Part shown: positions 6,616 to 64,000 of the stretch, piece by piece
Position numbering within the stretch: the stretch's first letter is position 1
Layout of the letters: each line of letters starts with the position of its first letter
DNA from: Amphiscolops sp. MND2022
Taxonomy: Eukaryota
Assembly (NCBI GenBank): GCA_964187785.1
Contig: OZ076409.1
Coordinates: forward strand, 28,832,001-28,896,000
Reading direction: 5' to 3'
DNA: 64,000 nucleotides
Notes under the pieces: model-generated
The model's database searches: none
What the model was told of the DNA's origin: nothing
What the model saw: only the letters and a program-made list of their open reading frames with translations
Program-made: the position numbers and the translations under genes

Positions 6616-6821
6616 CTGTCATGAGCAGATTTTGTAAATAACACTCAATTCCTTTTTCATTGACCTAATCTATCTAACTTGTTTGATTTTTCTTCTGAAA
6701 ATAGTACCCGTGCTGACAACCCAGAATGACCCACCGGTGGCCACCGCACTCCCATCGCAGCCCCACCGGTGGCCACCGCACTTCCCATCGCAGCCCCGGT
6801 GGCCACCGCGGTGGCAATGAC

Positions 6822-7517
6822 GATTACCAGAAATTTCGTCGTCGGAAATTTCGTCGTCAGAAATTTCGTCGTCAGAAATTTCGTCGCCGGTGATTACGTT
6901 CTATAGAACGTCGCATTTTGTTTAATCTATTAGGAATCGTCTTATTATTGAGTCTTAATAATTATCGATAATTGTGCAATAATTACTATCATTGACTACT
7001 TTTTGTTATGGTTTTGAAAAAGTTTCGGACCTTATAACTCCCCATATACCCCATATACACATTGTTTCTTATCCTCTCAACACGAAGTTGTTTCGACACT
7101 TAAGGCAAAAATTTCCATTACCAAAAGATGTTTTGATAATTTTCTGACAAAAAAAGCAAAAATTCCCACTGGAGCAAGCTTGAATTGTATTGTAAAGCCC
7201 CGGTAAGTAGTTCAACCGGTAGGACTGAAAATATACCCTTGCTCAATAAGCGTCTTGATGAGTTGATTGAATGCAATTCTTTTTGACTCAATTTTGGTGT
7301 CAAAATGAAACTTGCTCGCAAGATCTCATTTTAATAATTAAGTAATTGTATAATTCAAATGATATCTTTTGGTGAACTCTGTTATTCTAATCAATACGAC
7401 GAAATTTCCGACGACGAATTTTCTGACGACGAAATTTCTGGATTTGCTAATACGACGAAATTTCTGACGACAAAATTTCTGACGACGAAATTTCTGGCGA
7501 CGAAATTTCCGCCTCCC
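6822..7517. mobile_element. Mutator-like MITE with inverted 15-bp subterminal arrays
   Basis: AAATTTCGTCGTCAG arrays at 6830-6890 and inverted at 7395-7510. 9-bp TSD GGCAATGAC / GGCCATGAC with one mismatch. Confidence 0.65.
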
Positions 7518-7727
7518 GGCCATGACACATTTTGTGGTAGCCAGGGGTGGACCACCGGTGGCCAATGGTGGGGAAAAACTTCCTGTTGTATACAAAATAT
7601 TGCAAAAATCGTGACGCGAACCTGTATTAATTTTGTTCACACTCCAGCATTTACCTCTGCGCTATCAGCTTTTGTAATTTGCTTGTTTTGCCTTAGCTAT
7701 ATTTGTTCCGCAGCATTGCCTACATCG

Positions 7728-8194
7728 GTGCCGTTGTAAGTTCGCCATATTTAAGTTCGCCACGTATAAGTTAGCCCGTAAAACTTAGCCACGTTTAAGT
7801 TAGCCACCATATAAGATCGCCACGTTTATTTTCGCCACATTTCAGCTAATGAAAGAGTTCCATATCAGCGATTATTTTCGTTTGGTTATATTTAGTGGCG
7901 ATTAGCATACTTGTTGTATGGCTCGGTCGCTTCGCTCCCTTCGCCAAGTAGCAACATTGAGGCATAGCCATATGGCACGTCGCTCCGCTTCGCTTCGCTC
8001 CTGCTAGGGCACTAGGGGTATGTGAACAAATCTGACTACGTTATCGTAATTTTGAATGCTCGAATTTGATTGGCCGAAAATGTGGCGAACTTGTATGTGG
8101 CGAACATATATGGTGGCTAAATTAAATATGGCTAAGATTTACAGGCTAACTTATATGTGGCGAACTTAAAAAAGTGGCGAACTTAAACGGACAC
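7728..8194. mobile_element. Mutator-like MITE
   Basis: Inverted TAAGTTCGCCAC arrays at both ends. Flanking direct repeat GCCTACATCG (7718-7727 and 8195-8204). Confidence 0.75.
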
Positions 8195-12987: not shown

Positions 12988-14432
12988 CCAAATTTTCTAT
13001 ACAAATGTTCTATGTACTAAGATAATTTAGAATAATATTGTACTATAGTACTCAATTAGAATAGATATATTCTTCATCTCTGCAACTTCGCAACTCAATC
13101 AAGTTGGAATATCTTCACTGGAAGGTCCACAAAAAGTGAGTAAAGTTTCATTGCATTAAATTTACGCTCCCACAAGTGACATCATTTGCCGATATGAAAA
13201 AAAATAGAAAATTGGGAGATAAAAATGGAATCTAGATGGAAATGAGAAAAACTGAAAGAATCAACTAATACTTTTCTATTTAAAAAAAAAACGTGTGGGT
13301 TTCCTTCGCTTCAAGTAATGAAATGCTGCAGTTTTTACTGCACGCAATAATGAGTGCGCTCATCACTGCAAGCCATTACTTGAAGCGTAGGAAACCCACA
13401 TGTTTTTTGGTTTTCAAGAAAAACAACTATAGTTGACTTTGTTTTTCTCATTTCTTTCTAGATTCAATTTTTTCTCTCAGTTTTCACGTTAAAAGAGCGC
13501 ATACTCCGGGATCATTACCGTTTGATTAGTTTTTCTTTCAAGTAAGAAGGTGTAGTCATAGTTCATGTGCTAAATCAACTTTAATTGGGGGAAATTGTTC
13601 GCCAAACGTGAATATTCGCTCCTTAAGAGACATTTTTCATATTTAGAGGCGTTTCTGTTGTTTGAAAAGCTCAAACCCACCATCATCGGTTATATGGAAA
13701 CATGGCTACAGAAAGAATAACAGGCAAAACCTCTCAAACATCCTGGTTACCAAAGTCTCATTGCATTTAGTAGAAGTTGATTTGTTGATTTGTTAGAAGA
13801 CAAGAAACTCAGATGTGAAGTGTTAGTTATTGTAAAGATGTAGTGTTTCAAAGCACTACACGAGAATGGCTTGTCGTCGAAGTTGCGTCACCTAATATGC
13901 TCATCATAATGGTGTCTTGTTGCTGCGAAAAACGCTTTTCTAGAAAACCATAATCCGAGTAGCTTTTCGAAAAATTGACTCGCTTGAACAAAACAAACAA
14001 GCACATATTAATAATGAGTGGTTTCAACGCCGACCTCCTCTTTAAACATTGGCAATTTCAGGAACTCATAGCCACACTCAAGTCTCTCTACTAACATTTA
14101 AGTAGTTGGTTAGCTGTTACGCGAGAACAAAATGACTCAAAATGTTGCTTTGATCAAATCTAATTCAATTTTAAAATATCATCAGCTCGAGTGCATTAAA
14201 ACACTATCATCGATCGTTATTTGGTGTGAGTGATATTGTAGATACCATGGAAAAATGAGGTTTGACTCCAATATTTCGAAATTTCTATGGCTTTCAAAAA
14301 ATGATAATTGTTGAGTAAACCACTTGTCTTGCTGAACAATTTAAATAAGGCCGATTGAGAAGCATTGCCAATAGACGAATGTTCAGAGCAGCTGACTGCA
14401 TCGATCTTGAAAGACGACTTAATCATATGCAC
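12988..14432 (+). repeat. Copy 1 of a ~1.45-kb duplicated block (foldback MITE plus LINE endonuclease start)
   Basis: Near-identical to 27529-29162 apart from a few SNPs and the inverted insert in copy 2. Confidence 0.9.
13207..13485. mobile_element. Foldback MITE-like imperfect palindrome (also at about 27748-28024)
   Basis: TGTGGGTTTCCTTCGCTTCAAGTAATG … CATTACTTGAAGCGTAGGAAACCCACA plus looser outer arms. Confidence 0.6.
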
Positions 14433-17400
14433 GAGCTGGAGTTGTCTGGATTATTGCTGGAGACGAGTTACTGCTGTCAGTTTGCGGCTCGTGTATCCTC
14501 TGCTAATATCGCTGGTTTAGGCGATTTATTGGATGTCGTTCTCTCCCAGGAATTTGGTAAGTGCGCACTTCGTATATTGTTCTACTGTCAGTGGTATATC
14601 TAAGGCGTAAGGGAGAGTTTAGTCTTTCTTTCAAGTTTGCATTCTTTCAAGTTTAGTCCCGTAATGTTAGGGAGTGTCGGGCATAGCATTTTAAACAGGG
14701 CTTTCTCGTGTTTGTAGCTGAAGTCAACATGTCCGACGTGGTCAGTTATTTACGTCGCTTTCGTGCTTCGATAGCTGTTGGAACTGCTGAGGGTCCTGAG
14801 ACAGAGGCGGCGCCCATCCTTCGTCGACTGGATGCCTTTCTGACATCGCATCTTGGTAGGTGAATTCGCGGTTACTGTGAAGCTAGGTTATCTGCTGGGG
14901 GGGGATCTTTTGGTTCTTTTGCTGTTCAATACCAATGCATGCAGTTTATGGTTGCTGTTCTATAACCAGGTGACGATAGGTGCCTTCAGTCGTTGTGGGG
15001 CAATTCGTTCGAGCAGACGTCGTTGTGGGGCAATTCACGGACGTTTCGTCGTGTGGAACGGGAAATTCAGCAGTGGGTGAAGGCTGCAATTGAGTCTAGT
15101 TTGGGCCGGCTAGGGACACTGGGTGCTCTCGCTGTCGAGGATTTCCTGGGCAAGTTGAAGGAAGCGCTGCAAGAACTGGGTCAAGCTCCCGTCGTTCCCC
15201 GTGGTGGTGAGACTTCTTCTCTACCACGTTCTGTATCTGGGAGCATCTCTGGTGTGGACTATCGTCGTGCGGCAGTGGAGTCTGATGTGCCGTCTGAGTT
15301 TGGAGAAAAAAGCGTCGTTCCTTCTGGGGGGACTTCGTCTGCTGTTGCCTCCACATCAAAGCCTGGTAGGAACTCTCAAAAGATCGTGTGAGGGGTTTTA
15401 GTTTTAAGTGGTAAAAAAATGTATATAACGTACTACTAATGATTAAGGACAAACACTTTTTTTGAAGGTTTTTAAGGTTTTTTGGTTTTGCTTGGATAGT
15501 GGTGCTATGTGAGTTGTGTTGTGTGTTAGCAGGACGGAAGCGTGCTATCAAAACGCTGAAACCATCATTCTTCGTTTCTGGGGTCGTGGGGACCTTCGTT
15601 GGTTTCCCCTGAAACAAACGTGTGGTGGATGGGTTCGCAAGGTGTCGTCTGTGCCGTGTTGATTTAAGTATTGCCGGACGCGGGCTACACAACTTGTGGG
15701 AACATTGGAAGGGGCGAGAGCATACTCGTCTTGAGCAGCGCTTCCGCATCATGTCTAATAGGCCTCTATTGGACAAGTCCTGTAGGCCCATGTCATTGGA
15801 TGAAGACCGGAGAATTCGGGCAGCCAGAGTGTCGGAGCCACCTGTCATTCTGGAGTCAGAAGAGAAGCTGACTGTGGAAGAGCGGATTGCAGTCAAAATT
15901 GAAGAGGAGGCAGCTGGTTCGAAACCCGAGTTGTCGGAGTCCAGTGCTTCATACCTCTGGCTATGCTGCTTTATCAATAACTTTGTTGAACTGAAGGACC
16001 TTTCAAGCGTTGTGCGGTTCATGGAATTGTGGTCCAGTAGCATGCGGGGCGAGCTGGTTTTCACTGAGAGAGTGCTATCATACCCGAAATGTCAGGTAAT
16101 ACATGTTTGGTTCGTCTTTTTTTGTGTTCGTGAATTTTGGTTTTTGTCTGCTAGTTCGTGTATGTAGTTGCGTACTGTTTTCGTTGGCATTTGTATTATG
16201 AGCAGGGGATGCTGTACTTGTTGAGAAGTGTCACTGTTGTATGTTTGTTGTAGAGTCTTGTATTATACGGCCTGTATCCATTTGTCATGGAGAAGCTGAG
16301 CGATCTACTCTCTGCTGGGGCGCGGTTTGGTCTGCACGTCCGCACCGATGGGTCGTTGAAGCGAGTGGATTGCCACATTTTTGACGCTTTGACAGTCAAG
16401 ATGGTTGTGCTAGCTGCTATTCCTGGGGTTGGTGAGTGGGAACACTCACTACTCAAGATCGTTGTCTCTGTTCTGGCCTGTGTGGAGTCTCATGCGGGTG
16501 TGTGTGCTGTGAGTGTGGGGGAGAATCTGCGTCTTGGGCGTGCGTTAGCTAGCATCGCACACCCAACCATGCCTTTGGTTACTCGTCGTCTCGATGTGGA
16601 CTGGCTGAAGGATTTGCTGCGGCGCACGTTTCTGCAAGAATTGAGTGGACTGGAACCTTTCTGCGTGTTGGAGTATTTCCGGTTCCGCTTAGCTGCCGTC
16701 ATCGGTGGTTCGTCGTTTGACAATATGCCTAGGCTTCGTGAGGTAATTGATTTTAAGTTTGTTAGCGCATTTTTTTCGGGACTGGTGTGAGTATGTGTGG
16801 TAATGTGTGGTCGTAGTATGCTTTGTTCTAACTCGGTGCTGATTCTGTTTTAGTTCGTCCGTGGTGTTGCTGCGCGTTTCCAGGAGTTGTCGGCTCTGTG
16901 CACCGAACTTGTGGAGCGATGGGATGACCTCGGTGCCTACTTTGGTGTCCACCGGTCAAATACTGTGTCCGAAACGCGGAATATAGCCAGTATGGAAACT
17001 CAAGTCTTCAACGATGCTTTGTCGAGGCCGCGATTTGCAGTTTTGAAATTTCTGGCAGAGACAGGTCAGTATAAGAGTTTTGAGTGTTTCTTGTGTCCGG
17101 GTGTGTCTGTACTAGTTTTGTTGTATTTGTTGATTTGGGTGTTATCGACGTCTGAGTTGCTAGGGTGTGTAGTTTTTCGACATGTTGGTTGTGAATCGCC
17201 TGTGTGTTTTATTTGTTGCAAAGTGTCCTCGTTTGTGTTCTGCTGGGCGAGATCGGAACTTGTGGTTCGAGCGGGAGTTGGCTGTTTTCCTTCGAGAGTT
17301 ATTGTGTCTGGTTGTCGAACCCTCACCACCTGGTTGTCGTTACCACCTGATTTTGAAGTCCTCGCCGTGTTGAAGTTGCGACTGGGCGAGAGTAAGCCTG

Positions 17401-18505
17401 TTGACAAGGCCCGGTTTCAAGTGCTGTTCGGCCAGTATTTCCGCTTCGACGTGGTCAGCCAGAAGCCTTTCTTTTATAAAGAAGTGCAAAATTTCCTCAG
17501 GACTGTGTGCGAGGCTTGTATTGGCGATTATGACCAAGGGTGGGTTAAGCACCTAAGCTTGTTGCCGCTGGGTCCTTATGCTATTCAGTCGGTGTCAATG
17601 GACCGGCTGACGGACATCTTGTGGGTACGCTTTCTGTCCTCAGTTTTGGAGATCTATGCAGAGGGAGACCATGGTGCCATCATCTTACAGCAGTATCGCG
17701 AGGTAGTCAACTACTTCAAGCGTCGATGGGAGTTATTGAGGGAGTCGTTGGGAGTCCAATGCCAGTTATTGACGATGCCATGTCTTTGTGGTTGTCATAT
17801 CATTCGTGGGACCGGTGCCAAGAATTCCGGGGCATTGTGGAGATTCTTTTTGTGGGAATGCTCCATGATTCGTATGCTGCTGATTTTCAAGATGTAGGAG
17901 GCACGGCTCTCGATGACAGTATCATGCTGTCAAGTTTGAACATTATTCGAAGCTGGATGTCGAGTGGTTTTGGCGGGCACTCTCGTCGCTCGATGATTGG
18001 TTTCGTTAGACACTGTAGCACTACAGACATGCAGGTTTCGCGGTTAACCGATGAAGGCAGGGCTATTCCCTGTGACCAATTGGTTAAGAGGGGGATTGAC
18101 GAACTACTTGGGCGCTGTATCACTGTTCTGGAGTCGACTGGTGGTCTACTTTCTCGCCCTGCCATTGACGATTATATGTCTGCTGTTTGTAATCAGTTGC
18201 GGACAATGGAGTCGAGTCCAACTGCTCTCCGTCGGAGTCCTGTCAAATCAAGGCGTTTGCAGCTCAAGCGCCGAAATTACAATCTGAGGTCGTAATGTCA
18301 TCAGCAGGTCCGAGTGCGTCAGCTCCGAAGCGCAAAGCGGTCAGTAGGGCGTCAGGGGGCAATCACGGACAGAGGAAAGCCGGGCAAGAAGGGGAAGCTC
18401 ACTCTGGCTACCTTTGAAACTGAAACTGTACAAGCCAGCAGGCGGGCTTTTTCACTAGAAGAAAGCAGTAACGAGGGCGGTTCTAGCCGTTCTACAGAGT
18501 ATTAG
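14433..18505 (+). pseudogene. Spliced hAT-transposase-derived gene (~1080 aa, 5'-truncated); this copy has 2 in-frame stops and 1 frameshift
   Basis: Phase-consistent GT-AG exons at 14433-14556, 14718-14855, 14970-15365, 15530-16095, 16254-16742, 16854-17064 and 17173-18505. Motifs CRLC-x16-H-x5-H, PKCQSLVLYGLYPFVMEKL, ARFQELSALCTELVERWDDLGAYF and FYKEVQNFL. Stops at 15610 and 18293, frameshift near 17750. Confidence 0.7.
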
Positions 18506-20392
18506 TTGGCAGAAGGACTTGTATTAGTAATCAGACTTCTCGTATTTCTTCGTGTTTTCAACTTTTTGTGTATTTATTGAGTCCTGATATTGTGATTTGC
18601 TTTGTATGCTGAATTTTATTTTGGCCTGAGTAGGTCTTGCACTTTCTAGTAATTTAATTAGGTGGTTTCAACCATCATAGTACTCTTCTTTGTTTTTCCT
18701 TAGGACTGGACAGTTAGGACGTCACAAGAGGTTTTTCACTTGTTTTGCATGTGACAATTTTATTTTTTTTTGGCTCGTGGTGCTTATGATGACTGCATGT
18801 ATCCGTCATTCTTCTTCGTTGGTCTAATCTAGTCTAGGAATGATTTTTTATCGTAGTACATGAAACCTAAAGTTGCATGGCTCTTTTGCTTGCTTTTATT
18901 GTTGTTTGTATGCACGTTTTTGCATGATGCTGGACTGGCTTTGTCATTCTTAAGTGTGTGTATGGGGTAACCCATACTTCGCTATGATTTCGTGTGGACT
19001 TACGCTCTAATTGTTATGGCGTCTTCAGTGAATTTTTTGAGGAAGTTCATATTGGTTATGGTTGTCACTGCGGTAACCACCAACATAAAATTTTGTTCAC
19101 GCGCCAAGCTGTGCTGCGCATGGTACTCGAGAGCCAGGTTTTCATGTTCGTTGTTAGTGAAGGCTCGAGAATGGTAACGAGACATTTAGACCATGGCTTT
19201 CCAGTCCTTAGCTCCGCACTGCAAGGTACGTTACTGAGCAGCTTGTTCATTTCAATGACGGAATTCTCAAGGAGTGTATCCTTGATTTGATGCATGACTT
19301 ATTTGGTGTGCATGTAAGATGCATGTTATAAGTCTTAGGGACTATTTTGCATGTATTTTAGTGTGTTTCAATATATTACATGTAGCGTTCTGTGTACGCG
19401 ACGTCATCATCGTTGATGTGTGTCCTGGGACGTCATCATACGTGATGTGTTCGTCAAGATCGCGAGTTCTTACATTATGTTAACCTCGGTGGTAGGAAGT
19501 TGTTGGACGGAGAACTATGGGTGTGTGTGGATTTTAATACTAAGCAGAGATTGGGGCCGCGTACTCCTGAATCTTTTCCCAAGCGAGGCGAAGCCTTCGC
19601 ACATCTGGTTACTTTTAAGGGCCGGGCATTCATTGTTTTGTGGATTTGGTAAGTTCTTGTTCTTACCGGCGTTGTGTCATAGTTTATGGTTGGTTTTTTT
19701 TGATGTTCAGTTCATTGGAAAAGGTGAATTCCCGTCGGAACCACCTATGCAAAACTAACACTGAATCCAGTTGCTAAAGAGCAACCTTCATCTGTATGTT
19801 GACGACCAACCACACAAGCGCGCTTTTCGACGACGCACCCACACAGCCAGCACTATGAGTTTAAGTCGAAATGGGTGGGATATTGGTTGTGTTGTCCTAA
19901 CGTTTGCCAGGCAGCAGATCGTCACTGTTAGTTTGTTGCGTTTGTAGGGAACGTTGTTTTCGTTCACGTTTCGTTAGTTGTGTTTCGACAGTTTTCTAAG
20001 CGAAGTGCTTCGTTTCGATTGTTGATGTGGTAATTTTGGTGCGAATTGAATAAATTATCGTTCACACTTTTGCGCGCTACGTGTGCTTCCGGGCCGCGAG
20101 TGTTGGGATGATTGGCGTTTGCAGTCGTTGCGTTACCGTTTGTTTGTCTCTTACGTAGTGGTTGATGCTAAGTAATTAGACAACTCAAACAGTGTCGACG
20201 GAAGTGGATGGTCATTTAATCGTGTTAATTGGATTGTGTGCTAGGTTGTTCGGAATTTTCAATATTGTTTGTTGAGTACTGGCATATTGGGGCGTAATGG
20301 TAAAACAATTACTTTTACGGTCAAGAAGCGAGACTGTTTATGACTGCTGTTAGCAGTCGTTGGTTTGAGAAGTGCAATGAGGGAAGGGTGTT

Positions 20393-21992
20393 TTATAGGT
20401 TTCTGTTTTTCAGAAGTAACTGTTGAAGTGAAGGCGTTCCATGTAATTGGTGCATTAAGAAATCAGGGTACGTGGTAGGTTTTGGATTGTGTCTGAGCCC
20501 GTATCGAGACATGGTCTGTCGTGATGGCGCTGGAGGGCGGTCATTTGTTTGGTGTTCATTGTTGTTTGTGTCAGAATTGTTCATGCTAGCGTTATCCGGT
20601 TGTGGTTCTTGTGTTTCAGCTTGGCTTTCAGGTATGGAAATGTTTTGATCAGATTCTATGTTTTGCCGTTCGTAGTAGATCATTCCATGGTCTGCGTGTA
20701 ACTCTTCGAAGTTCGATTGTTCAGGTATTACTTGTTGTGGTTGTTCATGGACATTATCGGGTAGGTGATTGTCAAATAACTCCTGTTCGTTGAGGGCGTC
20801 GGGATCTTCGAAGTATTGTGATGCATTGTCTTGAATGTCTTCGATTGGTGCGTTTGGCGTGAATGGGCGAAGCCTCATTCTGTGAACGCAGTGGGTGCGA
20901 AGAGTGCCAATCTTACGTATGATGTAATTTGAATTTGACAAGACTTTGACCATTTTGTATGGGCCTTCCCACTTGAATTCCTTGAATGGATTTTTTTCAG
21001 ATTGCTGAGACAGTCTTTTGTTTAGCAGAAAGGTGAAATCATTTTCTTTCAGAGGTGAAGCTTGCGCTTTTCGGTCGTAGTAATTCTTGTATTTGTGAAA
21101 GGCTTCGATTATGTTGTCATGTGTTTGTTGGAATTTTTGTTCATGTTATCTAGTATTCCAGTGACGTCAGTAGTGTTACGTTGTTCAGCTAATGGATTGC
21201 CAAATTTGACGTCAAGGGCATTGAACGGAACACGTCCGTGGAAAATTTCAGTGGGTGTGCATCGAATAGCTTGGTGGTAGGTTGTGTTATGGGCCATTAC
21301 GGCCATGTTGACGTATTTGTGCCATTGTGGTGAATCAGCTGAGATGTTGATTTTGAGGATTTGTTTCAGTTTTTGATGGGAACGTTCAACCATCCCAATC
21401 GTTTGTGCGTAATTTACAGAGGCATGTTCGATTTTTATACTGGCAGACTCCATCAGGGAGTTGAGCAGTTGAGATGTGAATGTCGTTTCCTTATCAGTTA
21501 AGATTGTCTTGGGTACATACGAGTGTTGCGTAAAGATTTGCATGAGTGCATCCACGACCGACTTTGTGTCTGGTTTACGGATTGGTATTGCGAAGAGTTA
21601 CCTAGAAAAGTAGTCGCATGCAGTGAGTATGTGTGTGAATCCGTTGGAAGGTGGGAGTTCACCGACTAAGTCAATTTCTAGTATGTCTTCTGATCCGTTG
21701 CAGGGGTAGTATATTTGTTGAAGTGGTGGTGTGATTGCAGCTTTTCGGCTTGGTTTTGAGCGGATGCAGTCCTGGCAGTTCGAGACGTACTGCAGTACCA
21801 GTTCAGAGAGGTTTGGTGAGTAGTACCTTTTACGTAGTTCATGGAGCATTTTGTTACAACCAGGGTGACCTTGCAGAGGGTCATCGTGCAGGGATTGAAT
21901 GATTTTTCGAATGGTTTCAGGGGGAGTGACAATTTGTTTACACTTAATTTTACCTGTACCATCAAAAAAATCCTGTACAAAACGTTGTTCAC
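20393..21992 (-). pseudogene. Gypsy integrase, frameshifted
   Basis: GHPG…CQDC zinc-binding motif, EIDLVG, LTDKE, GMVER, TPTEIFHGR and a W-EGPYK-like C-terminal module. Confidence 0.9.
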
Positions 21993-22110
21993 TACTTCAA
22001 GTCTTTTCTTGTTTTTGACTAGTTTTTGGAAAACTGACTTTCAAAGTTCACATGATTAGGAAGGGTTTCCTTTTGGTTCAAAACTCTAATCATGCGTTGG
22101 ATGTCAAGGT

Positions 22111-22900
22111 TTACGAGTTGATCCTGGATGATTTGAAACTGGGGCATACCTGGTTTACCACGTTGTCATAAAGCTTTCGCCTGAATCGGGTGAACGTCAT
22201 CTCGTCGTGTTGCCCTGTGATTATGGGTGTGATTTGATGACGGATGGTTTCTATTCTCTCGAGAAATTGTCCACTCGATTCGTTGCTGCACATGGGGACC
22301 TGGTCCAGGATGGTGTTGATGGTTTCATTTTGTTTGGTGGTGGTAGTGTGTTGGTCATCAGGTATGTATTCTTCTTCTTCGTCCTGCTTGGGTGTTCTTG
22401 ATGCCAGGTCGATCTCGACGTGGAAGACTGGTATCTCGTCGTTGAGTTTGAGGTGGATTCTTTCCTCTGGTCGTATGTCAAGACGAGACAGGTAGTCTGC
22501 AGCAGGGTTCTCAGTTCCCGGAACATGGGCAAGTACGAATTCGAATTGAGCGTCTGATCGCAGTAATTCCATAGCTTCGGGGGAATCCGTTTAGACTGAA
22601 AGAATCGGGTCAGTGCTTTATTGTCCGTCATTACTATTGTTGGTTTTTTGACCCCCAGAGTATGTGTGCGAATTCGTCGAATGCGAAATGCATCGCCAGG
22701 AATTCCTTTGCGTACATTGTTAGGGACATTTGGCCCTCCGTGAATCGTTGGGATCCAAATGATACTGGAGCGTACGTCTTCAGTGGTCCATCGTTTGTTT
22801 CGGTATAGTCTTCTATCAGGAGGACATATCCTGCCGCATGCTCGCTGGCGTCGCACATTATAACAAGCTGTTTATCGGGTAACGGCAGACGCAGCGAAAG
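22111..22900 (-). pseudogene. Gypsy RNase H and linker, frameshifted
   Basis: CDASEHAAGYVL, YAKEFLAM, MTDNKAL and NPAADYLSR. Confidence 0.9.
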
Positions 22901-22909
22901 CTTCGCAGC

Positions 22910-24043
22910 TTAGGCAAGATTTTCCTTAATCTCGAAGATGATGTCCTTTCGTTGCTGGGTCAACTGGAATTTGACGTCTTTTTGGAGTAGTTTGTTCAGT
23001 GGGGTGAGTTTTTCTGCTATGCGTGGTATGTACTGCCTGTAGAACTGGACAAACCCGATGTACCTTTGGAGGGATTTGATCGATGTGGGCAATTTGATCT
23101 TCTTGAGGAAGTCGTCGATTTTGTCTTCAAGTGGGGCGACACCCTTTGATGTGATGCTTCTCCCGAGGAAATCAATTTGTGGGTGGCCAAACGCACATTT
23201 TGGCATCGACAATTTCAGTCCTGCTTTTTGGATTTGTTGAAACACGGCTTCAATGTTTGACAGTAGCTCATCTACAGTGTGGGCAGCAATTCCAATGTCG
23301 TCGACATATTGGGCACATTTATCCGCTTTCACCAGTGCATCAACGTATTCTCGCACCGTGCTGTTGAATGCTGATAGGGATCGGTTGAGTCCTTGTGCCA
23401 GTCGTAGATAAGCAAAAGTTCGACTTCCAAAATTGAATGCCAAGAGTTGTATGGATTGTTCATCCGCCATCTGCAAACAGTGGTACGCCTTCGAACAATC
23501 TACCTTGCAGAAGTACTTCTTCCCTGCCATGTGCTGGGCGGCGTCGGCGATGGTGGTGACTGGATGATTATGTTGGTTGTAATCATTTTTCAAGAGGTGA
23601 TTGATTCTGGGCAGGTCTACAAGGATGCGAAGTTTCCCATTGGGTTTGCGCTGAGCAAATATTGGTGAGGAATACTTGCTGTACGGCAACGTCGTGATGA
23701 TCCCGTACTCTTGCATCAGTGCTAGTTCGACGAGCAGGTCATCTTTGAGGTTGGTGGGTGTAGGTAAGCTCTGCGCGTAGACTGGTTCATCATGCTTCGG
23801 AGTGAGTTTGATTTTGAAGTCAGTATTGATGCCTATGTCGAGGCGGTGTCTGGCGAATACATTGTTGTACTTCACAAGGAGGTTCTCAATCCGTTGTCGT
23901 TCGTGCTCATTCAGGATTGAGTTTTCCCATTTGAAGTTGGCAAGGAACTCCTTGCGCTGTTGGTCGTCTGCTGTTGGGTCCAGTTTCTCTTCTTCACGGA
24001 GTTTAGTGATTTCGTCATATATCCGCCTTTCAATGCGGTTCAC
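22910..24043 (-). CDS. Gypsy reverse transcriptase
   Basis: YSSPIF…KPNGKLRILVD, QGL, YVDD and LQRYIGFVQFYR. Confidence 0.95.
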   Translation of the reverse strand: MNRIERRIYDEITKLREEEKLDPTADDQQRKEFLANFKWENSILNEHERQRIENLLVKYNNVFARHRLDIGINTDFKIKLTPKHDEPVYAQSLPTPTNLKDDLLVELALMQEYGIITTLPYSKYSSPIFAQRKPNGKLRILVDLPRINHLLKNDYNQHNHPVTTIADAAQHMAGKKYFCKVDCSKAYHCLQMADEQSIQLLAFNFGSRTFAYLRLAQGLNRSLSAFNSTVREYVDALVKADKCAQYVDDIGIAAHTVDELLSNIEAVFQQIQKAGLKLSMPKCAFGHPQIDFLGRSITSKGVAPLEDKIDDFLKKIKLPTSIKSLQRYIGFVQFYRQYIPRIAEKLTPLNKLLQKDVKFQLTQQRKDIIFEIKENLA

Positions 24044-24106
24044 CTTGGACGGGTCATCACATGTCTCCGGAGTTGGGTACCATCTGCGTTTGGTTTCAGT
24101 GCCGGG

Positions 24107-25072
24107 TTACTGGAACAGCTGGTTCAGTACGTTGTTGGCTTCGTCCGGGTATTTGGTTATTAGTGTCAATTGTTCGTTTGACATCGGTTGTAGGTTTTTT
24201 GCTTGGTTGGGAGTCCTTATCTTGAAGGTGGCCACTGTCGTGTTCGGGTTGAGGGTAATTGTATGGCAGGTGAGGTTGGTGATCTGGACATGGCTTTTCT
24301 TCTCAGTGATTTGCGTTAGGGCGGAGGACACCAGTAATTGTGTCTTCCTTTCAAAGGCAGGAAAGATTTCCACTGTGCCCTGGATTGTCCCGAGGTCCCT
24401 TTCTGCTAGGACGGTGACAATGATTTGGTGGTCCGGTTGTATGACCGTTTTCTGTGTCGTTCGTAGTTCGATCATCTGGATTTTGTATCGTCCTCTTTCT
24501 GGTTTTAGTTGCAGGGTAATGTCCGGGAACTTGACTACGTTGTTGGCAAAGTCAAGTGTCACTGAATACTTTTTGAAGAATGACAATCCGATCAAGATGT
24601 TACCCATGGTTGGAAGAATCATGAAGGTTTCCTCGAATACTTTACCTCCGATGACGAAGCGAAGTAGTACCTGTTTCCGGACCGGGACGATGCTTCCGTT
24701 TGCGATTTGGACTTTGAAGTCCGGTGCTGGGTACTCTTCGAGAAGTGCGGCTGGGTGTGCAGACAGGATTCGTCTGAGTTCGTCCTCTGACATGGCACTT
24801 CTTATTGCTCCTGTGTCGAGGAGTCCGTGGTTCTCGTATTCTCGGAATTGCAATGGGACGTACAACATCTTGTCCTTTTTGTTTAATTGGAGTGTTGCTG
24901 TTAACACCTGGATCGCCACGTCTTTCTTTCGGTTCATTGTTTTCCTTGTACAGTCAGTCGCTGTAGTCGAGTTAGAGTGCTGTTTGTCTTCTGTCGTTTG
25001 TAAGTTCACATCCGTTGGTTCGGAGGGAGGGTTCGCTTTGTTTTTGGATGTTTCGTGGGTAGTTGTAGTCAT
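24107..25072 (-). CDS. Gypsy aspartic protease and spacer domain
   Basis: LLDTGA catalytic motif, IANG flap and ILIGLSFF. Confidence 0.9.
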   Translation of the reverse strand: MTTTTHETSKNKANPPSEPTDVNLQTTEDKQHSNSTTATDCTRKTMNRKKDVAIQVLTATLQLNKKDKMLYVPLQFREYENHGLLDTGAIRSAMSEDELRRILSAHPAALLEEYPAPDFKVQIANGSIVPVRKQVLLRFVIGGKVFEETFMILPTMGNILIGLSFFKKYSVTLDFANNVVKFPDITLQLKPERGRYKIQMIELRTTQKTVIQPDHQIIVTVLAERDLGTIQGTVEIFPAFERKTQLLVSSALTQITEKKSHVQITNLTCHTITLNPNTTVATFKIRTPNQAKNLQPMSNEQLTLITKYPDEANNVLNQLFQ

Positions 25073-25196
25073 AGGTTTCTGATCCTGCCGAAGATCAGTT
25101 GCCCGGTTTTTGTAGTTCTTTGTATAGTAGTAGTCGAGTCGTTCATGTTGCGCACTTTGTTATTGCGATAGTCAGTCGGATGACGTGGCTTTAGAA

Positions 25197-25203: not shown

Positions 25204-26390
25204 AGCTGGCTGGATGATGCTTCTGTGAATTCCTGTTGGTAGTAGTCGTCACTGGTTTGCTGTTGTTGGTCCCCTGGTGCAAGGTCGTTCATTTCATTTC
25301 CTGGGTAGGGGTTGTTGTGTGCTCTTCGGAAGTCACGTCGGAAGTCCCTGTTTTCAGTTGTGGTTTGCCTATTGTATGGCACGCTTCCGTAGGCGGAAGT
25401 TTGGGGTATTCTGTAACAGCAGTCTTTTGCGGAGTGACCTGTGTAACTGCAAATTTGGCAGACCAGTTTGGCATTGTATTTTGGTTGTGTTTCTGCGTTG
25501 TTGTTTTGCTGTTCGGGCTTTTTCTGTGCTTGTGAGTTGTTGTTGCCCGCTGCTTCGTCACGCAGTCGTTTTCGGCACTCAGCCTATTTGTGTCCGTAAA
25601 TTGCTCAGTATCTGCAATTGCCATCGAATTTCTTTTTGATTGTTGGTCGTTCATTTTCGTTTCTTTTCTGAACAACTGGCTTGTTTGGGACTTCTTGTGT
25701 CTGGATAGCCTGGTTGACCGGTTGGAGGAGTTGTTGATTTGGTAGTAACTGGGCATATTGGCATCTTCTCTGGACGAATGTTTTGATGTCTTCAATGCTG
25801 GCATTGTGTTTTCCTGCAATTGCCAGTTCGTTTTGGAGCTGGATCGGTAATTTGGCAAACAGGAAGGTCTGGACAATTTCCTGTGCCTTTTCGCCGTAGG
25901 CTTGTTTGGCAATCTTTTTGTAATTGGCGAGGAAGGTACTGAATGACTCGGTGGTCGGATCGTATCGTAGCTGGTCGAATTTGAACTTCGAGACTTCTGA
26001 GAGTTCTTCCTTGGCGTATTCTTTTTTGAATGCCGTCAGTATATCTCTCAGTGTCGTTTCTGTTGTGATTGTTAAGGTTTGCCAAAACTCAATTGCGTCA
26101 TGCCTGAGAAGACTCTGAAAGTAGTTGAGCTTTTGTTCTTCAGTGAGTTTGTGGGCATGTGGTCGTAAGTGGTTGAGCAATAAATGCTCGAATTCCTTGT
26201 ATTTGTCTCGATTTCCCTTGAATAGAGGTACTTGGGTCTGCAGGATTTTTGGTTGAGTCAAGTTTTCCCCCATTGTTTTGCGGAGATGGTGGATTTCCGT
26301 CATCACATCTGCTATCTGCGGAATACTTTCGTCACTCCTTGGTGTTCCGCTGGGTGGTGTTGTTCGAGATCCTGGTCGTCGTGGGTTCGG

Positions 26391-26404
26391 GACTCCTGTC
26401 ACCA
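26391..26404 (-). promoter_or_regulatory. Primer-binding site (tRNA-Leu-like) inside the gag ORF
   Basis: TGGTGACAGGAGTC directly after …CCGACA. The same TGGTGACAGGAGT follows the proven LTR end at 34828. Confidence 0.75.
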
Positions 26405-27528
26405 TGTCGGAACGACTGTTAGCACTTGTAGTCGCTGTGTTTAGTCTGTTCCTTTCTCCATTAACGGAGGCAAACTGATTGGTTAATGTAAGGACTATGT
26501 TGGTAAGGTCTCCGATTTGTCTATTTATCTCATTAAATCGTTGATCAATGCTATAGTTATTACTATTTTGACGTCTAGTTAATACGTCGTCAGAGTCAAG
26601 GTCTACGATTTGCTCTCTGGATAAGAGATCAGGGAAACTGGATTCGCTTTCATTATCGCTTGATCTGTCCATATTTTCAGTTTCTACTTGTCTATTTTGA
26701 CTACTTTGAGATCTATTAGTTACCATGAAAAGTCTGAAAGTTTTGAGTTGAATTGAAATGTGTTAATGTTATGATAAGGATTGATGACTTGTAAGCAAGG
26801 TAGTAGGCAACTTGTTCTATCAAAAGTTACAACTCGTGAGTGTTTCCGGTTTTACCCGATTGTGTAATTATAAAAGTGTGTTAGCACCTTTCCTTTTAGC
26901 CAATGACATTCGATCTACTAATTGCTCTTTAATTGCACTTGACGACTGGTGGTTACAGTCGTGGCGGGTGATAATCGGCGTTTAGTTATTCATGTTTGAT
27001 CTAGTATGACCGCAAGCACCAGTCATTTTAGCACGCAATTGTCTCAATTACTTCTTAAACTGAAGCTTTACTACCGTGTATTCTTATCATCATGGTGACT
27101 GATTCAATTATCGTTTGGAGGTTAATTACTAAATGGTATTGTACAAATTGCTGATATAAATGAATGAAATGTTGTTGTTATGCATGATCGAGTATTCTGG
27201 TAATACTCTACATGTAATATAAGAAATGTATGAAGAATGATTAAATGATGAACTATCACGATAGCTGATGACTGATTGTTCCAGTCTTATATGTGGGAAT
27301 CATTTATGATGACTGAATATTTCAGTCTTGGTTTCTAAACGATGCACAATTACATGAATGAATTTAGTATTGATAACTTTTAGTTCCAGTTGTTATATTT
27401 TCAACTGTATTGTTCGGGGAATAAATTACTGCAATGTATTTTCATGATGATCTGTATTTTAGGGAGTTTGATGTATGAATTAATATTTTAGAGTTCGTTT
27501 AATTCCTTCATGCTTGGCGGGCATGACG
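26405..27528 (-). repeat. 5' LTR (~1124 bp) of the large Gypsy element
   Basis: Starts CGTCATGCC (the related solo LTR starts TGTCATGCC) and ends CCGACA before the PBS. Host duplicate block begins at 27529. Confidence 0.7.
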
Positions 27529-29162
27529 CCAAGTTTTCTATACAAATGTTCTATGTACTAAGATAATTTAGAATAATATTGTACTATAGTACTCAATTAG
27601 AATAGATATATTGTTCATCTCTGCAACTTCGCAACTCAATCAAGTTGGAATATCTTCACTGGAAGGTCCACAAAAAGTGAGTAAAGTTTCATTGCATTAA
27701 ATTTACGCTCCCACAAGTGACATCATTTGCCGATATGAAAAAAAATAGAAAATTGGGAGATAAAAATGGAATCTAGATGGAAATGAGAAAAACTGAAAGA
27801 ATCAACTAATACTTTTCTATTTAGAAAAAACGTGTGGGTTTCCTTCGCTTCAAGTAATGAAATGCTGCAGTTTTTACTGCACGCAATAATGAGTGCACTC
27901 ATCACTGCAAGCCATTACTTGAAGCGTAGGAAACCCACATGTTTTTTGGTTTTCAAGAAAAACAACTATAGTTGACTTTGTTTTTCTCATTTCTTTCTAG
28001 ATTCAATTTTTTCTCTCAGTTTTCACGTTAAAAGAGCGCATACTCCGGGATCATTACCGTTTGATTAGTTTTTCCTTCAAGTAAGAAGGTGTAGTCATAG
28101 TTCATGTGCTAAATCAACTTTAATTGGGGGAAATTGTTCGCCAAACGTGAATATTCGCTCCTTAAGAGACATTTTTCATATTTAGAGGCGTTTCTGTTGT
28201 TTGAAAAGCTCAAACCTTTGAGCTTTTCAAACAACAGAAACGCCTCTAAATATGAAAAATGTCTCTTAAGGAGCGAATATTCACGTTTGGCGAACAATTT
28301 CCCCCAATTAAAGTTGATTTAGCACATGAACTATGACTACACCTTCTTACTTGAAGGAAAAACTAATCAAACGGTAATGATCCCGGAGTATGCGCTCTTC
28401 ATGAACCCACCATCATCGGTTATATGGAAACATGGCTACAGAAAGAATAACAGGCAAAACCTCTCAAACATCCTGGTTACCAAAGTCTCATTGCATTTAG
28501 TAGAAGTTGATTTGTTGATTTGTTAGAAGACAAGAAACTCAGATGTGAAGTGTTAGTTATTGTAAAGATGTAGTGTTTCAAAGCACTACACGAGAATGGC
28601 TTGTCGTCGAAGTTGCGTCACCTAATATGCTCATCATAATGGTGTCTTGTTGCTGCGAAAAACGCTTTTCTAGAAAACCATAATCCGAGTAGCTTTTCGA
28701 AAAATTGACTCGCTTGAACAAAACAAACAAGCACATAATAATAATGAGTGGTTTCAACGCCGACCTCCTCTTTAAACATTGGCAATTTCAGGAACTCATA
28801 GCCACACTCAAGTCTCTCTACTAACATTTAAGTAGTTGGTTAGCTGTTACGCGAGAACAAAATGACTCAAAATGTTGCTTTGATCAAATCTAATTCAACT
28901 TTAAAATATCATCAGCTCGAGTGCATTAAAACACTATCATCGATCGTTATTTGGTGTGAGTGATATTGTAGATACCATGGAAAAATGAGGTTTGACTCCA
29001 ACATTTCGAAATTTCTATGGCTTTCAAAAAATGATAATTGTTGAGTAAACCACTTGTCTTGCTGAGCAATTTAAATAAGGCCGATTGAGAAGCATTGCCA
29101 ATAGACGAATGTTCAGAGCAGCTGACTGCATCGATCTTGAAAGACGACTGAATCATATGCAC
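27529..29162 (+). repeat. Copy 2 of the duplicated block, containing a 368-bp perfect palindrome
   Basis: Matches 12988-14432, with an extra inverted segment at 28217-28399. Confidence 0.9.
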
Positions 29163-49531: not shown

Positions 49532-51812
49532 ATGGCGCTGCGAGCATCAAACTCGTCAAATACTGCTACGTCCTCGCAAAAGGACGCAATTCCTTCACTA
49601 CTTCCGGGATTACCACTGTTTTGGCCGGATGCAGAAAAACACCCTGCGATGGAATGGGAAAGATGGATAGATTTATTTGCTCTGGCGGTGATGGCTAAAC
49701 ACTCGATATCAATAGACGAACTGACAAGAACGGTGGATGAGAGTCAACATAGGGTAAAGGCGCTAATAGGGGATATGCCAGAAGAAGCGGCTGAGAAGAA
49801 AGTCGTAACTTGGTTATTCCTGTCAGTTGGCGAACCGGCACGAAAACTCTTTAAAGATAAATATCCAGAGTTGTCAGTGTGGACACTACGGACTAGAGAG
49901 ATGCTGTAAAGATGCGAGAATTGTTTCTACATAGCAAGAAATAGAACGTTAGATAGACACAAGTTCCTATCCAGAAAACAGCAAGTAAACGAATCGCTAC
50001 AACAGTTTTGGCATGCGCTCCACGGCTTAGCGAATTGGGGGAAATTCCCCAAACATTAGTGCACGACGTCTTCATTTTAAATAAGAACAATAAGAAGGTG
50101 AAGGAGAAGCTGTGTGTGGAACCATTCAAAGACCCCCAAGAAGCCCTACAATATGCCATATCCTATGAAGAAGGCATAAAAAGACAAAGGTCTATGGGGA
50201 TAGGAGTGGCAGAAGGCTCGAAAGCAACAATAAAGACTGAACCAGTATGCGCTGTGGATAAAGTGAACAACCGAGAATGTTGTGGGGCAGGCAATTTTAC
50301 AACTGACCACATAAGGAGATATCCAGCGACAAATCATAAATGTTAGTTCTGCAACATCATGGGACAACTGGAAAAGTTCTGCAATCAGAAGTATCCGGAG
50401 AGAGAAAAGCAAATGAAGCAGAGGATGCAAAATCGCAGAAAAGGATTTTCCCGGGTAAATTACATATCCGAAGAATAAACCGTTCGAGATAGAAGGCTCG
50501 ATGTGTGGCAACAAACTCAGAGCCATAATCGATACGGGGTCGCATGTCTCGATATTTGCGATAGACGAACTGAGAAGAATAATTGGAAAACGGTGGGTGG
50601 TCGTCAGAGACATGATAGATGGTGAAAGATATGTCGACTTCAACCGACGCCCACTTCCGTTATTGGTATACATGTTTGTCAGCATCCAATTAGCAAAAAC
50701 AAGAAAGTCAAAAGCAAGAGTGCTGGTGGCGAAGAAAGGAGCTAAATCGATCATCGGCGTGATTGGCTTACAGCGCTGAAATACAGAATCGAACTACCAA
50801 TCACAAAAGGTGAGAACGCTGTAAATAGTAATTCCCGCGGCTTAGCGAAATGGGGGAAATTCCCCAAACATTAGTGCACGACGTCTTCATTTTAAATAAG
50901 AACAATAAGAAGGTGCAGGAGAAGCTGTGTGTGGAACCATTCAAAGACCCCCAAGAAGCCCTACAATATGCCATATCCTATGAAGAAGGCATAAAAAGAC
51001 AAAGGTCTATAGGGATAGGAGTGGCAGAAGGCTCGAAAGCAACAATAAAGACTGAACCAGAATGCGCTGTGGATAAGGTGAACAACCGAGAATGTTGTGG
51101 GGCAGGCAATTTTACAACTGACCACATAAGGAGATGTCCAGCGACAAATCATAAATGTTAGTTCTGCAACATCATGGGACATCTGGAAAAGTGCTGCAAT
51201 CAGAAGTATCCGGAGAGAGAAAAGCAAATGAAGCAGAGGATGCAAAATCGCAGAAAAGGATTTTCCCGGGTAAATTACATATCCGAAGAATCCGAAGAAG
51301 AACTGGATGAAGACGAAATGGTTCTGCAGGTCGATGGGACGGCAGTGAAACCGTTCGAGATAGAAGGCTCGATGTGTGGCAACAAACTCAGAGCCATAAT
51401 CGATACGGGGTCGCATGTCTCGATATTTGCGATAGACGAACTGAGAAGAATAATTGGAAAACGGTGGGTGGTCGTCAGAGACATGATAGATGGTGAAAGA
51501 TATGTCGACTTCAACCGACGCCCACTTCCGTTATTGGTATACATGTTTGTCAGCATCCAATTAGGAAAATCAAGAAAGTCAAAAGCAAGAGTGCTGGTGG
51601 CGAAGAAAGGAGCTAAATCGATCATCGGCCGTGATTGGCTTACAGCGCTGAAATACAGAATCGAACTACCAATCACAAAAGGTGAGAACGCTGTAAATAG
51701 TATTTCCCGCGAAAGCGACGAATCAGAAAATAAGCTAAGTCCGGACGCGCAGCAATTAGTTCAAGAGTTTCCAAATCTATTTAAACGACGCGGTAGAATA
51801 AACAATTGTTAA
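49532..51812 (+). pseudogene. gag-protease with an internal ~0.85-kb tandem duplication
   Basis: WERWIDLF, FLSRKQ…ES, CNIMGHLEKCC knuckle and IIDTGS. 50023-50839 repeats 50838-51711 with a ~56-bp deletion. Confidence 0.85.
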
Positions 51813-51824
51813 ATCAAAATTGAA

Positions 51825-52904: not shown

Positions 52905-53000
52905 ATGAACTATAGCTTTTAGCTGTAGTATGGGCGACAGAACATTTTAGAAATTACGTTTACGGAGTAAAATTTCAAGTTATTTCAGATCATAAAGCGC

Positions 53001-63300: not shown

Positions 63301-64000
63301 GAAGGTGCAGGAGAAGCTGTGTGTGGAACCATTCAAAGACCCCCAAGAAGCCCTACAATATGCCATATCCTATGAAGAAGGCATAAAAAGACAAAGGTCT
63401 ATAGGGATAGGAGTGGCAGAAGGCTCGAAAGCAACAATAAAGACTGAACCAGTATGCGCTGTGGATAAGGTGAACAACCGAGAATGTTGTGGGGCAGGCA
63501 ATTTTACAACTGACCACATAAGGAGATGTCCAGCGACAAATCATAAATGTTAGTTCTGCAACATCATGGGACATCTGGAAAAGTGCTGCAGTCAGAAGTA
63601 TCCGGAGAGAGAAAAGCAAATGAAGCAGAGGATGCAAAATCGCAGAAAAGGATTTTCCCGGGTAAATTACATATCCGAAGAATCCGAAGAAGAACTGGAT
63701 CAAGACGAAATGGTTCTGCAGGTCGATGGGACGGCAGTGAAACCGTTCGAGATAGAAGGCTCGATGTGTGGCAACAAACTCAGAGCCATAATCGATACGG
63801 GGTCGCATGTCTCGATATTTGCGATAGACGAACTGAGAAGAATAATTGGAAAACGGTGGGTGGTCGTCAGAGACATGATAGATGGTGAAAGATATGTCGA
63901 CTTCAACCGACGCCCACTTCCGTTATTGGTATACATGTTTGTCAGCATCCAATTAGGAAAAACAAGAAAGTCAAAAGCAAGAGTGCTGGTGGCGAAGAAA
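60318..64000 (+). repeat. Near-identical duplicate of 47858-51608 (solo LTR half plus 5' part of the nested Gypsy)
   Basis: Same nesting, TSD and internal duplication. Differs by SNPs, an ~11-bp deletion and an ~56-bp LTR deletion. Confidence 0.95.

Follow-up and report, generated by a model that had tools for sequence, protein, structure and literature searches.

Can a gene with introns live inside a retrotransposon, on the strand opposite to gag and pol, and can such a gene have begun as a DNA transposase? This question is raised by a Ty3/Gypsy long terminal repeat (LTR) retrotransposon in the genome of Amphiscolops sp. MND2022, within a stretch of 64,000 nucleotides (nt) (contig OZ076409.1, positions 28,832,001 to 28,896,000) that we call the window and whose coordinates are used below. 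The element carries gag-pol on the minus strand, and scattered open reading frames (ORFs) lie beside pol on the plus strand. An original prediction, made from the letters of the window, had joined these ORFs between 14433 and 18505 into one spliced gene and had read it as a hAT transposase that was captured by the element and kept as a catalytically dead accessory protein. We regard it as nearly certain that the plus-strand frame is a real, selected accessory gene of a Gypsy element. The fuller reading, in which this antisense gene derives from a hAT transposase and encodes a non-catalytic DNA-binding factor, is one that we favor with moderate confidence.

The antisense gene: exons, selection and linkage to the element

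The 1.07-Gb source genome was searched at the DNA level with window positions 14400-18600, which returned 36 scored matches of 392 candidates at 90-96% identity. Splice sites and codons were analyzed in an alignment of 30 copies, namely the window and 29 other genomic copies. The six introns proposed for the window all begin with GT and end with AG exactly where they had been placed, and across the 30 copies the donors read GT in 29-30 and the acceptors AG in 28-30. The parts of the gene are the following (lengths in amino acids, aa; a slash marks a splice junction):

14433-14556, plus strand: remnant of exon 1; phase-1 junction in frame with exon 2, 5' end and start codon missing
14557-14717, plus strand: intron 1; GT in 30/30 and AG in 30/30 copies
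14718-14855, plus strand: exon 2; internal ATG at 14729
14856-14969, plus strand: intron 2 as first drawn, GT-AG; the family's probable acceptor lies 66 nt further downstream
14970-15365, plus strand: exon 3; 39 nt short in the window compared with other copies
15366-15529, plus strand: intron 3; GT in 29/30 and AG in 30/30 copies
15530-16095, plus strand: exon 4; BED-like finger at 15643-15723, in-frame TGA at 15610-15612 in the window
16096-16253, plus strand: intron 4, GT-AG; position shared with a divergent lineage, P0003
16254-16742, plus strand: exon 5 (163 aa); the most conserved block, originally proposed as an RNase-H-like core
16743-16853, plus strand: intron 5, GT-AG
16854-17064, plus strand: exon 6 (70 aa); holds an ERW motif
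17065-17212, plus strand: intron 6 with the family's acceptor (gtttcag/TTGTTGC); AT instead of AG in the window
17213-18505, plus strand: exon 7 (~426 aa in intact copies); all-helical domain, then a basic tail; seven indels in the window

As first drawn, the model was open in none of the copies, and its exon 6/7 junction was out of phase in most of them. The family's intron-2 acceptor is a strong site (tttgcag/AT), 66 nt 3' of the one first drawn; the 66-nt stretch that opened exon 3 in the earlier model carries in-frame stops in most copies, and these are skipped only if the downstream acceptor is used. The family's intron-6 acceptor lies 40 nt downstream of 17172, the end first given to this intron, which is in the wrong phase in intact copies. 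Once these two acceptors are corrected, the family frame opens: a coding sequence of 3042 nt, counted from the internal ATG, is fully open in six of the 30 copies (L018-L023), in one of which (L021) one acceptor reads GG. The claim of six phase-compatible introns is right about the GT-AG sites in the window, but the family's acceptors of introns 2 and 6 differ from those drawn.

In the other copies exon 1 begins at an ATG (MSDDEAG...) 111 nt before the point that matches window position 14433. It is open in 23 of the 29, with a diversity of 0.024, 0.016 and 0.066 at codon positions 1, 2 and 3; in the 300 nt upstream of the ATG diversity is 0.064. At the other end, 12 of the 29 other copies have exon 7 as an uninterrupted frame of 439 aa. 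Once exon 1 is included, the family gene, as modelled from the alignment, is composed of seven coding exons and six GT-AG introns, with 3288 nt of predicted coding sequence and a predicted protein of 1095 aa. The size of about 1080 aa that had been given for the window is close to this value, but the window copy itself is not one open frame.

Indeed, the window copy is not intact, as had been assumed. A codon that reads CGA in 27 of the 30 copies has become an in-frame TGA at 15610-15612, the intron-2 acceptor is gone through a 39-nt deletion, and the intron-6 acceptor reads AT. Exon 7, the last, carries seven indels that are specific to the window (+11, -1, +1, +3, +8, -1 and -8), so that three reading frames are needed to read through it. 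The first 111 coding nt and everything upstream of them are absent. Position 14433 is consequently not the start of the gene, as had been thought; in 29/29 other copies the upstream sequence continues, with the ATG further 5'.

Comparison of the copies, which had been proposed as a check, revealed purifying selection. Mean pairwise diversity among the 30 copies was 0.030, 0.023 and 0.069 at codon positions 1, 2 and 3 and 0.058 in introns, the third-position value being about three times the second-position value. Among the 15 pairs of intact copies, Nei-Gojobori dN/dS was 0.14-0.31 in 13; the two remaining pairs, which are the closest, gave 0.49 and 0.65 on 12 and 4 synonymous differences, respectively. 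Eight between-subfamily pairs gave 0.19-0.38. The accessory gene is protein-coding and under purifying selection. A 331-aa minus-strand ORF (15096-16091) was considered as a sense ORF3 of the element and rejected; it exists in the window only (0/29 other copies), and the codon signal therefore does not come from a minus-strand gene.

The flanks of the gene are the retrotransposon's own sequence in 29/29 other copies, and both flanks that define its antisense position between pol and the 3' LTR are common to all of them. One copy, joined from loci L031, L003 and L032, is complete. Its 1124-bp LTRs are 97.7% identical, have TGTCGG...ATGACA ends and are bracketed by a 5-bp target-site duplication (TSD), CCCAG; the polypurine tract (PPT) AAAAAGGGGGGAA adjoins the 3' LTR, and 816 bp separate this LTR from the ATG of the gene. 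The full element structure was established in this one copy and the linkage also in one divergent lineage (see below), and together with the shared flanks they confirm the position that had been proposed from the window. This otherwise complete copy has one irregularity, in L032 (G000:C2:37454800-37464799): 1,458 bp are duplicated in tandem (positions 21781-24700 after joining, 99.7% identical), including the beginning of gag and the larger part of the 5' LTR.

This orientation offers a way for the introns to survive. The genomic RNA would be the minus-strand transcript, in which the introns of the accessory gene are antisense and so would not be spliced out; reverse transcription of this RNA would then pass them on to every new copy. 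The logic, which was part of the original prediction, fits what we see: the introns are kept in all 30 copies, and the family includes a complete copy with LTRs and a 5-bp TSD.

Relatives of the gene were found far beyond these copies. With exon 7 as query, HMMER found 133 relatives at E ≤ 0.001 among 1.84 billion representative proteins; all exon-7 relatives in the protein databases are at most 439 aa long, that is, single-exon fragments, and no longer, spliced protein came up in a word-based database search. Relatives of exon 5 (36-97% identity) lose their similarity precisely at the exon ends, where ...LRE is followed by a V from the GT donor. One relative, P0003, is encoded in the same genome and shares 42% identity with exon 7. 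Its locus matches the window family over exons 4-7, with protein identities of 36-49%, and the junctions (GT/AG) fall at the same places, including the corrected intron-6 acceptor, while the intron lengths differ. About 2 kb further downstream, the other strand encodes a Gypsy integrase that is 57-71% identical to that of the window. The gene is linked to a Gypsy integrase in both lineages examined.

Four divergent exon-5 peptide queries each gave 900-1300 candidate loci, in lineages of 45-100% identity and with mostly open frames. We conclude that the gene is a genuine, old accessory gene of a large, diversified Gypsy clade in an animal genome. The host is an animal because rhodopsin-type G protein-coupled receptor genes are present in the genome (1133 candidates, best E 3e-52). 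At a locus of the P0003 lineage (L045, G000:C10:28822500-28828900) a stretch of 6 kb contains the integrase region two to three times in the same orientation, which is a tandem or nested duplication.

Possible descent from a hAT transposase and catalytic status

The hAT assignment was based on motifs, and the peptides quoted for it (PKCQ/SLVLYGLYPF, LVERWDDLGAYF, FGLHVR, VSVGE, TRRLD and HDSYAADFQ) are all present in the exon translations. The BED-like finger proposed at 15643-15723 stands in part: the CxxC-x16-H-x5-H pattern is present there, but the match of exon 4 to the Pfam zf-BED family (E 0.022-0.027, 15.2 bits) is under the 20.6-bit cut-off. Since the genome holds many ordinary hAT transposons, a hAT donor was available. 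The Pfam hATC model gave 150 scored matches of 2215 candidates in the genome, none of them at the listed loci of the gene family. Five uninterrupted hAT transposases of 597-697 aa are encoded at the following loci:

L046-L050 (G000; C7:12942104, C1:77183102, C3:11861948, C2:25336438 and C6:22332464): hAT transposase loci

All five carry the BED finger and the D..W, DN, CxxH, TRW and SER motifs. The motif names follow common usage for hAT transposases and the alignment of the five proteins.

The one positive, if weak, result for a hAT origin came from the predicted fold of exon 7. An AlphaFold model built from a 44-sequence alignment is all helical over residues 1-225, with a pLDDT of ~90. When this helical model was compared with 48,161 PDB chains, Hermes came first, with its residues 354-581 as the best match and an alignment of 163 residues, vs at most 95 for other chains. 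The first rank of Hermes counts in favor of hAT because hAT had been predicted before the fold search. Furthermore, weak local matches to the five hAT transposases fall at co-linear places and at nearly one common offset. In the full-length hhalign comparison ...RFGLHVRTDGS was matched to ...NGLSLTSDIWT, the first catalytic D block, at offset 293 (E 0.8, non-significant), and in the exon-7 comparison ...LWLSYPSWDRC was matched to the W..P.L start of the hATC region at offset ~300 (E 0.75, non-significant). Segments with the BED CxxC, ERW/TRW and the hATC start were among the 13 best ungapped segments, in co-linear order. The order of BED finger, core and helical domain is that of the hAT architecture.

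A larger number of comparisons weigh against this origin. None of the hAT-related Pfam families was found in 44 exon-7 or 23 exon-5 family members, and PF05699 (hAT dimerisation) had no match at E ≤ 1 in the 44 exon-7 members. Sequence searches of the PDB with the exon-7 profile, the exon-5 profile and exon 4 returned chance matches only (DarR, L23 and decorin-binding protein). With hhalign, the comparisons to the five genomic hAT transposases, per exon and at stitched full length, reached non-significant probabilities of 0.05-0.2% and yielded no alternative alignments; exon 5 had no profile match to them. In a profile Smith-Waterman comparison, 34 of 200 column shuffles scored at least as high as the real alignment, which was also outscored by the reversed template; the clustering of segment offsets was below the block-shuffle mean. 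A Foldseek search of the PDB with the same exon-7 model had no match at E ≤ 0.001, and the 50 matches listed did not include Hermes. The AlphaFold model of exon 5, the supposed RNase-H core, had a mean pLDDT of 40.8 and was unusable, and the ESM atlas offered only unrelated helical or HEAT-like clusters with scores of at most 0.89.

The profile, AlphaFold and Foldseek checks proposed for the gene thus gave a divided answer: profiles and Foldseek were negative, but Hermes was the best of 48,161 chains. For hAT homology in general, this structural match and the weak co-linear matches speak in favor, but all sequence and profile tests were non-significant. We lean towards the view that the accessory gene descends from a hAT-type transposase captured long ago. 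The statement that the gene has no hAT terminal inverted repeats (TIRs) proved correct. In L023, no inverted pair of at least 14 nt with arms upstream and downstream of the gene was found, and the flanks are retrotransposon sequence in 29/29 copies.

In the window lineage, acidic residues stand at three candidate catalytic places: RTDGS, SVGEN (SVGDN or SVSDN in close relatives) and YAADF. The D of RTDGS is C, S or H in 8/8 second-clade sequences, the acidic residue of SVGEN/SVSDN shifts column across the family, and P0003 has N for the D of YAADF. Nor is the CxxH place conserved; it reads T..R or G..T. Conserved instead are W-E, LAC, vG.A.A, PLV and SGLEP..LEYFR.RL, residues that look structural. 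The protein had been called catalytically dead; the variation of the candidate acidic and CxxH positions between lineages agrees with this, but the residue mapping used for that call is not established. Its register for the FSL..D position (FGLHVR) is two residues off the hhalign match, in which the D of RTDGS falls on the catalytic D, and loss of the first D is therefore not established for the window lineage. Because the candidate positions are not conserved, a non-catalytic role is the better bet, and if the protein is hAT-derived, its sequence makes it probably non-catalytic.

How do other explanations compare? The gene might be real and selected and still not be hAT-derived: it could be a captured host BED-finger or other nuclear gene, or could have arisen within the element, so that the likeness to Hermes would be one of generic helices. 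We consider this somewhat unlikely. Hermes was the first of all chains with by far the longest alignment, after hAT had been predicted beforehand; the weak profile matches fall at the expected motifs with one common offset; and the order of finger, core and helical domain matches the hAT architecture. The protein might also still be an active DDE/DDD-type nuclease or transposase acting on DNA, for example in processing or integration of the element's cDNA. An acidic residue is present at each candidate place in the window lineage (RTDGS, SVGEN and YAADF), and in the hhalign match the D of RTDGS is paired with the catalytic D that is invariant in the five hAT transposases; however, the three acidic positions and CxxH are not conserved across the family, and the alignment that nominates them is non-significant. 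An active enzyme is accordingly very unlikely.

Finally, the plus-strand ORFs could be non-functional, either as fragments of a nested DNA transposon or host gene or as products of strand skew. The window copy, taken by itself, would fit this, as it is full of stops and frameshifts, and skewed strands do yield long chance ORFs, such as the 331-aa minus-strand ORF at 15096-16091 with its 0/29 counterparts. Against it stand dN/dS values of 0.14-0.3, a diversity that follows codon position, a full frame intact in 6/30 copies, an exon-intron structure and an integrase linkage kept at 36-49% identity, hundreds to thousands of copies in many lineages, and the absence of TIRs. This explanation is hardly credible. 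We therefore keep to a selected accessory gene of the Gypsy element, with a hAT-type transposase as its favored source.

The window copy of the element and its flanks

The Ty3/Gypsy LTR retrotransposon in the window, whose gag-pol is on the minus strand, is an old and dead copy that has lost its 3' end. Its parts and flanks are the following:

12988-14432, no strand assigned: repeat X1, a local duplicate of host DNA from the element's other flank
18506-20392, no strand assigned: spacer; separates the stop codon of the accessory gene from that of pol, the two genes being convergent; homologous in 29/29 copies, as far as each locus extends
20393-25159, minus strand: pol (protease, reverse transcriptase (RT), RNase H, integrase), from the ORF list and Pfam
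25605-26405, minus strand: gag, from the ORF list and Pfam; its candidate ATG overlaps the boundary of LTR and primer-binding site (PBS)
26405-27528, minus strand: the family's true 5' LTR (~1.12 kb), homologous to the terminal direct repeat of the complete copy elsewhere
27529-29162, no strand assigned: repeat X2, host DNA beside the 5' LTR; includes a 183-bp inverted duplication at 28217-28399

Along the minus strand, Pfam found RVT_1 (3e-19), RT_RNaseH_2 (1e-13) and Integrase_H2C2 (9e-19), with further matches to rve, Integrase_p58_C, gag-asp_proteas and, weakly, Retrotrans_gag/DUF1759. Gag is thus followed on one strand by protease, RT, RNase H and integrase, the order of Ty3/Gypsy elements, and the accessory gene is convergent with pol, as predicted. 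In the window, pol is broken into at least seven ORFs by stops and frameshifts. The plus strand is G/T-rich over 14-27 kb (GC skew +0.12 to +0.32, AT skew negative), which bears out the earlier observation that the gene shares the strand skew of the element. Downstream of the gene, no plus-strand AATAAA occurs before 20049. The first ATG of the gag frame past the LTR (26403-26405) takes its A from the final position of the 5' LTR and its TG from the primer-binding site, and the frame stays open for ~120 codons further upstream, within the LTR.

The 5' LTR of the window is followed inward by the PBS-like sequence TGGTGACAGGAGTCCCGAACC, and the PBS-like TGGTGACAGG... is read in the window. A TG..CA LTR pair with TSD, PBS and PPT is present in the family, but not in the window copy, in which the 3' LTR is missing. 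The place of the 3' LTR, of the ~0.8-kb spacer and of the first 111 coding nt is taken by X1. X1 and X2 are 99% identical and form a 1.45-kb direct duplication that brackets the truncated element. Elsewhere in the genome X has only partial matches of 64-74% identity, and it lies upstream of the gene in 0/29 other copies. We considered X as an LTR of this element or of another family and rejected this: it is locus-specific, lacks TG..CA ends and has no TSD around X...X.

Both X copies begin with CCAAG/CCAAA, which is probably the 5-bp TSD of the element. A break in the 3' part of the element may have been repaired by copying the opposite flank, and this copying was possibly primed by the TSD. 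The 99% identity of X1 and X2 therefore dates the repair event and not the insertion. Within X2, the 183-bp segment at 28217-28399 is an inverted duplicate of adjacent sequence of the type found at 13493-13675 and is absent from X1. Both copies also contain an older internal inverted repeat of ~280 bp with 77% identity.

Further away in the window, short tandem repeats encode KFLTT/DEISD peptide repeats on both strands at 6640-6900 and 7340-7740, and simple-sequence arrays thus lie to both sides of the 7-kb position. Strong strand skew was also seen at 50001-55000 and 62001-64000 (AT skew +0.23 to +0.43, GC skew positive) and at 1-1000 (AT skew -0.45). These other skewed stretches may be further retroelements.

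Possible role and comparison with known systems

A promoter of the gene's own would lie in the ~0.8 kb that separate its ATG from the 3' LTR and would drive transcription convergent with gag-pol. The most conserved non-coding blocks lie here, 40-135 nt and ~490-535 nt upstream of the ATG, with a diversity of 0.02-0.035 vs ~0.1 around them. A promoter in the 3' LTR, as first suggested for the window copy, does not apply to it, as this copy has no 3' LTR. An intron in the 5' untranslated region that would end just before the start codon was considered as well and rejected, its AG being kept in only 19/29 copies.

In the predicted protein a BED-like finger is joined to a conserved core and a helical scaffold, and the basic tail, which is disordered, has a PKRK motif; this combination suggests a nuclear DNA-binding factor. 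The helical scaffold may resemble the insertion/dimerisation region of hAT transposases. Such a protein would aid the element in targeting its integration, in controlling its transcription or in escaping silencing by the host; all three are possible, and the data do not discriminate between them. In the basic tail of exon 7 (window ~18330-18420) the motif G-R-R-T-G-G-(K/V)-P recurs in lineages that are 35-40% identical; around it the tail is otherwise variable and disordered. We give about even chances to the view that the Gypsy clade, with its ~1000 loci, has long depended on a seven-exon antisense gene of hAT origin, re-purposed as a non-catalytic DNA-binding and targeting or anti-silencing factor.

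LTR retrotransposons are usually thought to need gag and pol only. Antisense accessory genes have so far come mainly from plants, and here the host is an animal and selection is seen down to ~40% protein identity. Our searches of the open-access full-text literature turned up no animal LTR retrotransposon with a gene described as antisense, spliced or hAT-like. The multi-intron structure would persist only because it is antisense to the replicating RNA, and the lead on its origin is a hAT-type transposase. If this is true, the element is a stable chimera of class I and class II, with introns shielded from loss by their orientation. The benefit of the gene to the element, the exchange of parts between class I and class II, and the ride of an intron-containing gene on a reverse-transcribing element can now be tested. 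For annotation, hundreds of such loci could be mis-called host genes or 'unknown' ORFs.

The closest known arrangement is that of the plant Ty3/Gypsy elements Grande (gene23), RIRE2 and Retand, which carry antisense ORFs (aORF-3R) between pol and the 3' LTR; the origin and function of the plant ORFs are unknown, the maize Grande gene has its own promoter and a nuclear product, and the Silene Retand ORF encodes the plant-only TRP28 domain (PMC7264820, PMC11963269). The gene studied here resembles the plant ORFs in lying between pol and the 3' LTR, in antisense, in most copies of old, diversified lineages, and in the long region from pol to the 3' LTR. It differs from them in its animal host, its six conserved introns, its larger protein (1095 aa), its possible BED finger and its hAT-like helical domain. 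No exon or family member had a Pfam match to TRP28 (PF04195), nor was there a sequence relation to another Pfam family, and the word 'intron' is not in the main text of either plant paper (PMC7264820, PMC11963269).

With hAT proteins (Hermes, hobo, Ac and ZBED-type derivatives) the gene shares a BED-like finger pattern near the N-terminal third and a co-linear domain order, a helical domain whose best PDB match is Hermes 354-581, and an RW motif and a W..YP block whose relative positions are those expected. Unlike them, it shows no significant sequence or profile similarity, no hATC Pfam domain, no conservation of D/D/E and CxxH, and no TIRs. Also unlike hAT and ZBED genes, it is neither a host gene nor an autonomous DNA transposon, since it lives inside a retrotransposon and co-evolves with it.

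Retroviral antisense genes provide another parallel. HBZ mRNA is spliced, and its transcription starts in the 3' LTR. Like HBZ of human T-cell leukemia virus type 1 (HTLV-1) and ASP of human immunodeficiency virus type 1 (HIV-1), the gene encodes a protein on the strand opposite gag-pol, near the 3' end of a reverse-transcribing element. Unlike HBZ and ASP, with which it has no homology, it is far larger, has six introns, and has its conserved blocks in an internal spacer. The HBZ product is nuclear and regulatory (PMC11963269).

Among animals, the Juno and Vesta LTR elements of bdelloid rotifers have captured extra ORF3s of env-like, DEDDy and GDSL type (PMC5408684). In that paper, 'antisense' refers to small RNAs only, and 'intron' and 'transposase' do not occur, unlike in the case described here. 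Juno and Vesta are alike in being animal LTR retrotransposons that keep extra genes of cellular or other mobile-element origin. If our reading is true, the gene of this Gypsy clade is an animal counterpart, of independent origin, to the plant aORFs and the retroviral antisense genes.

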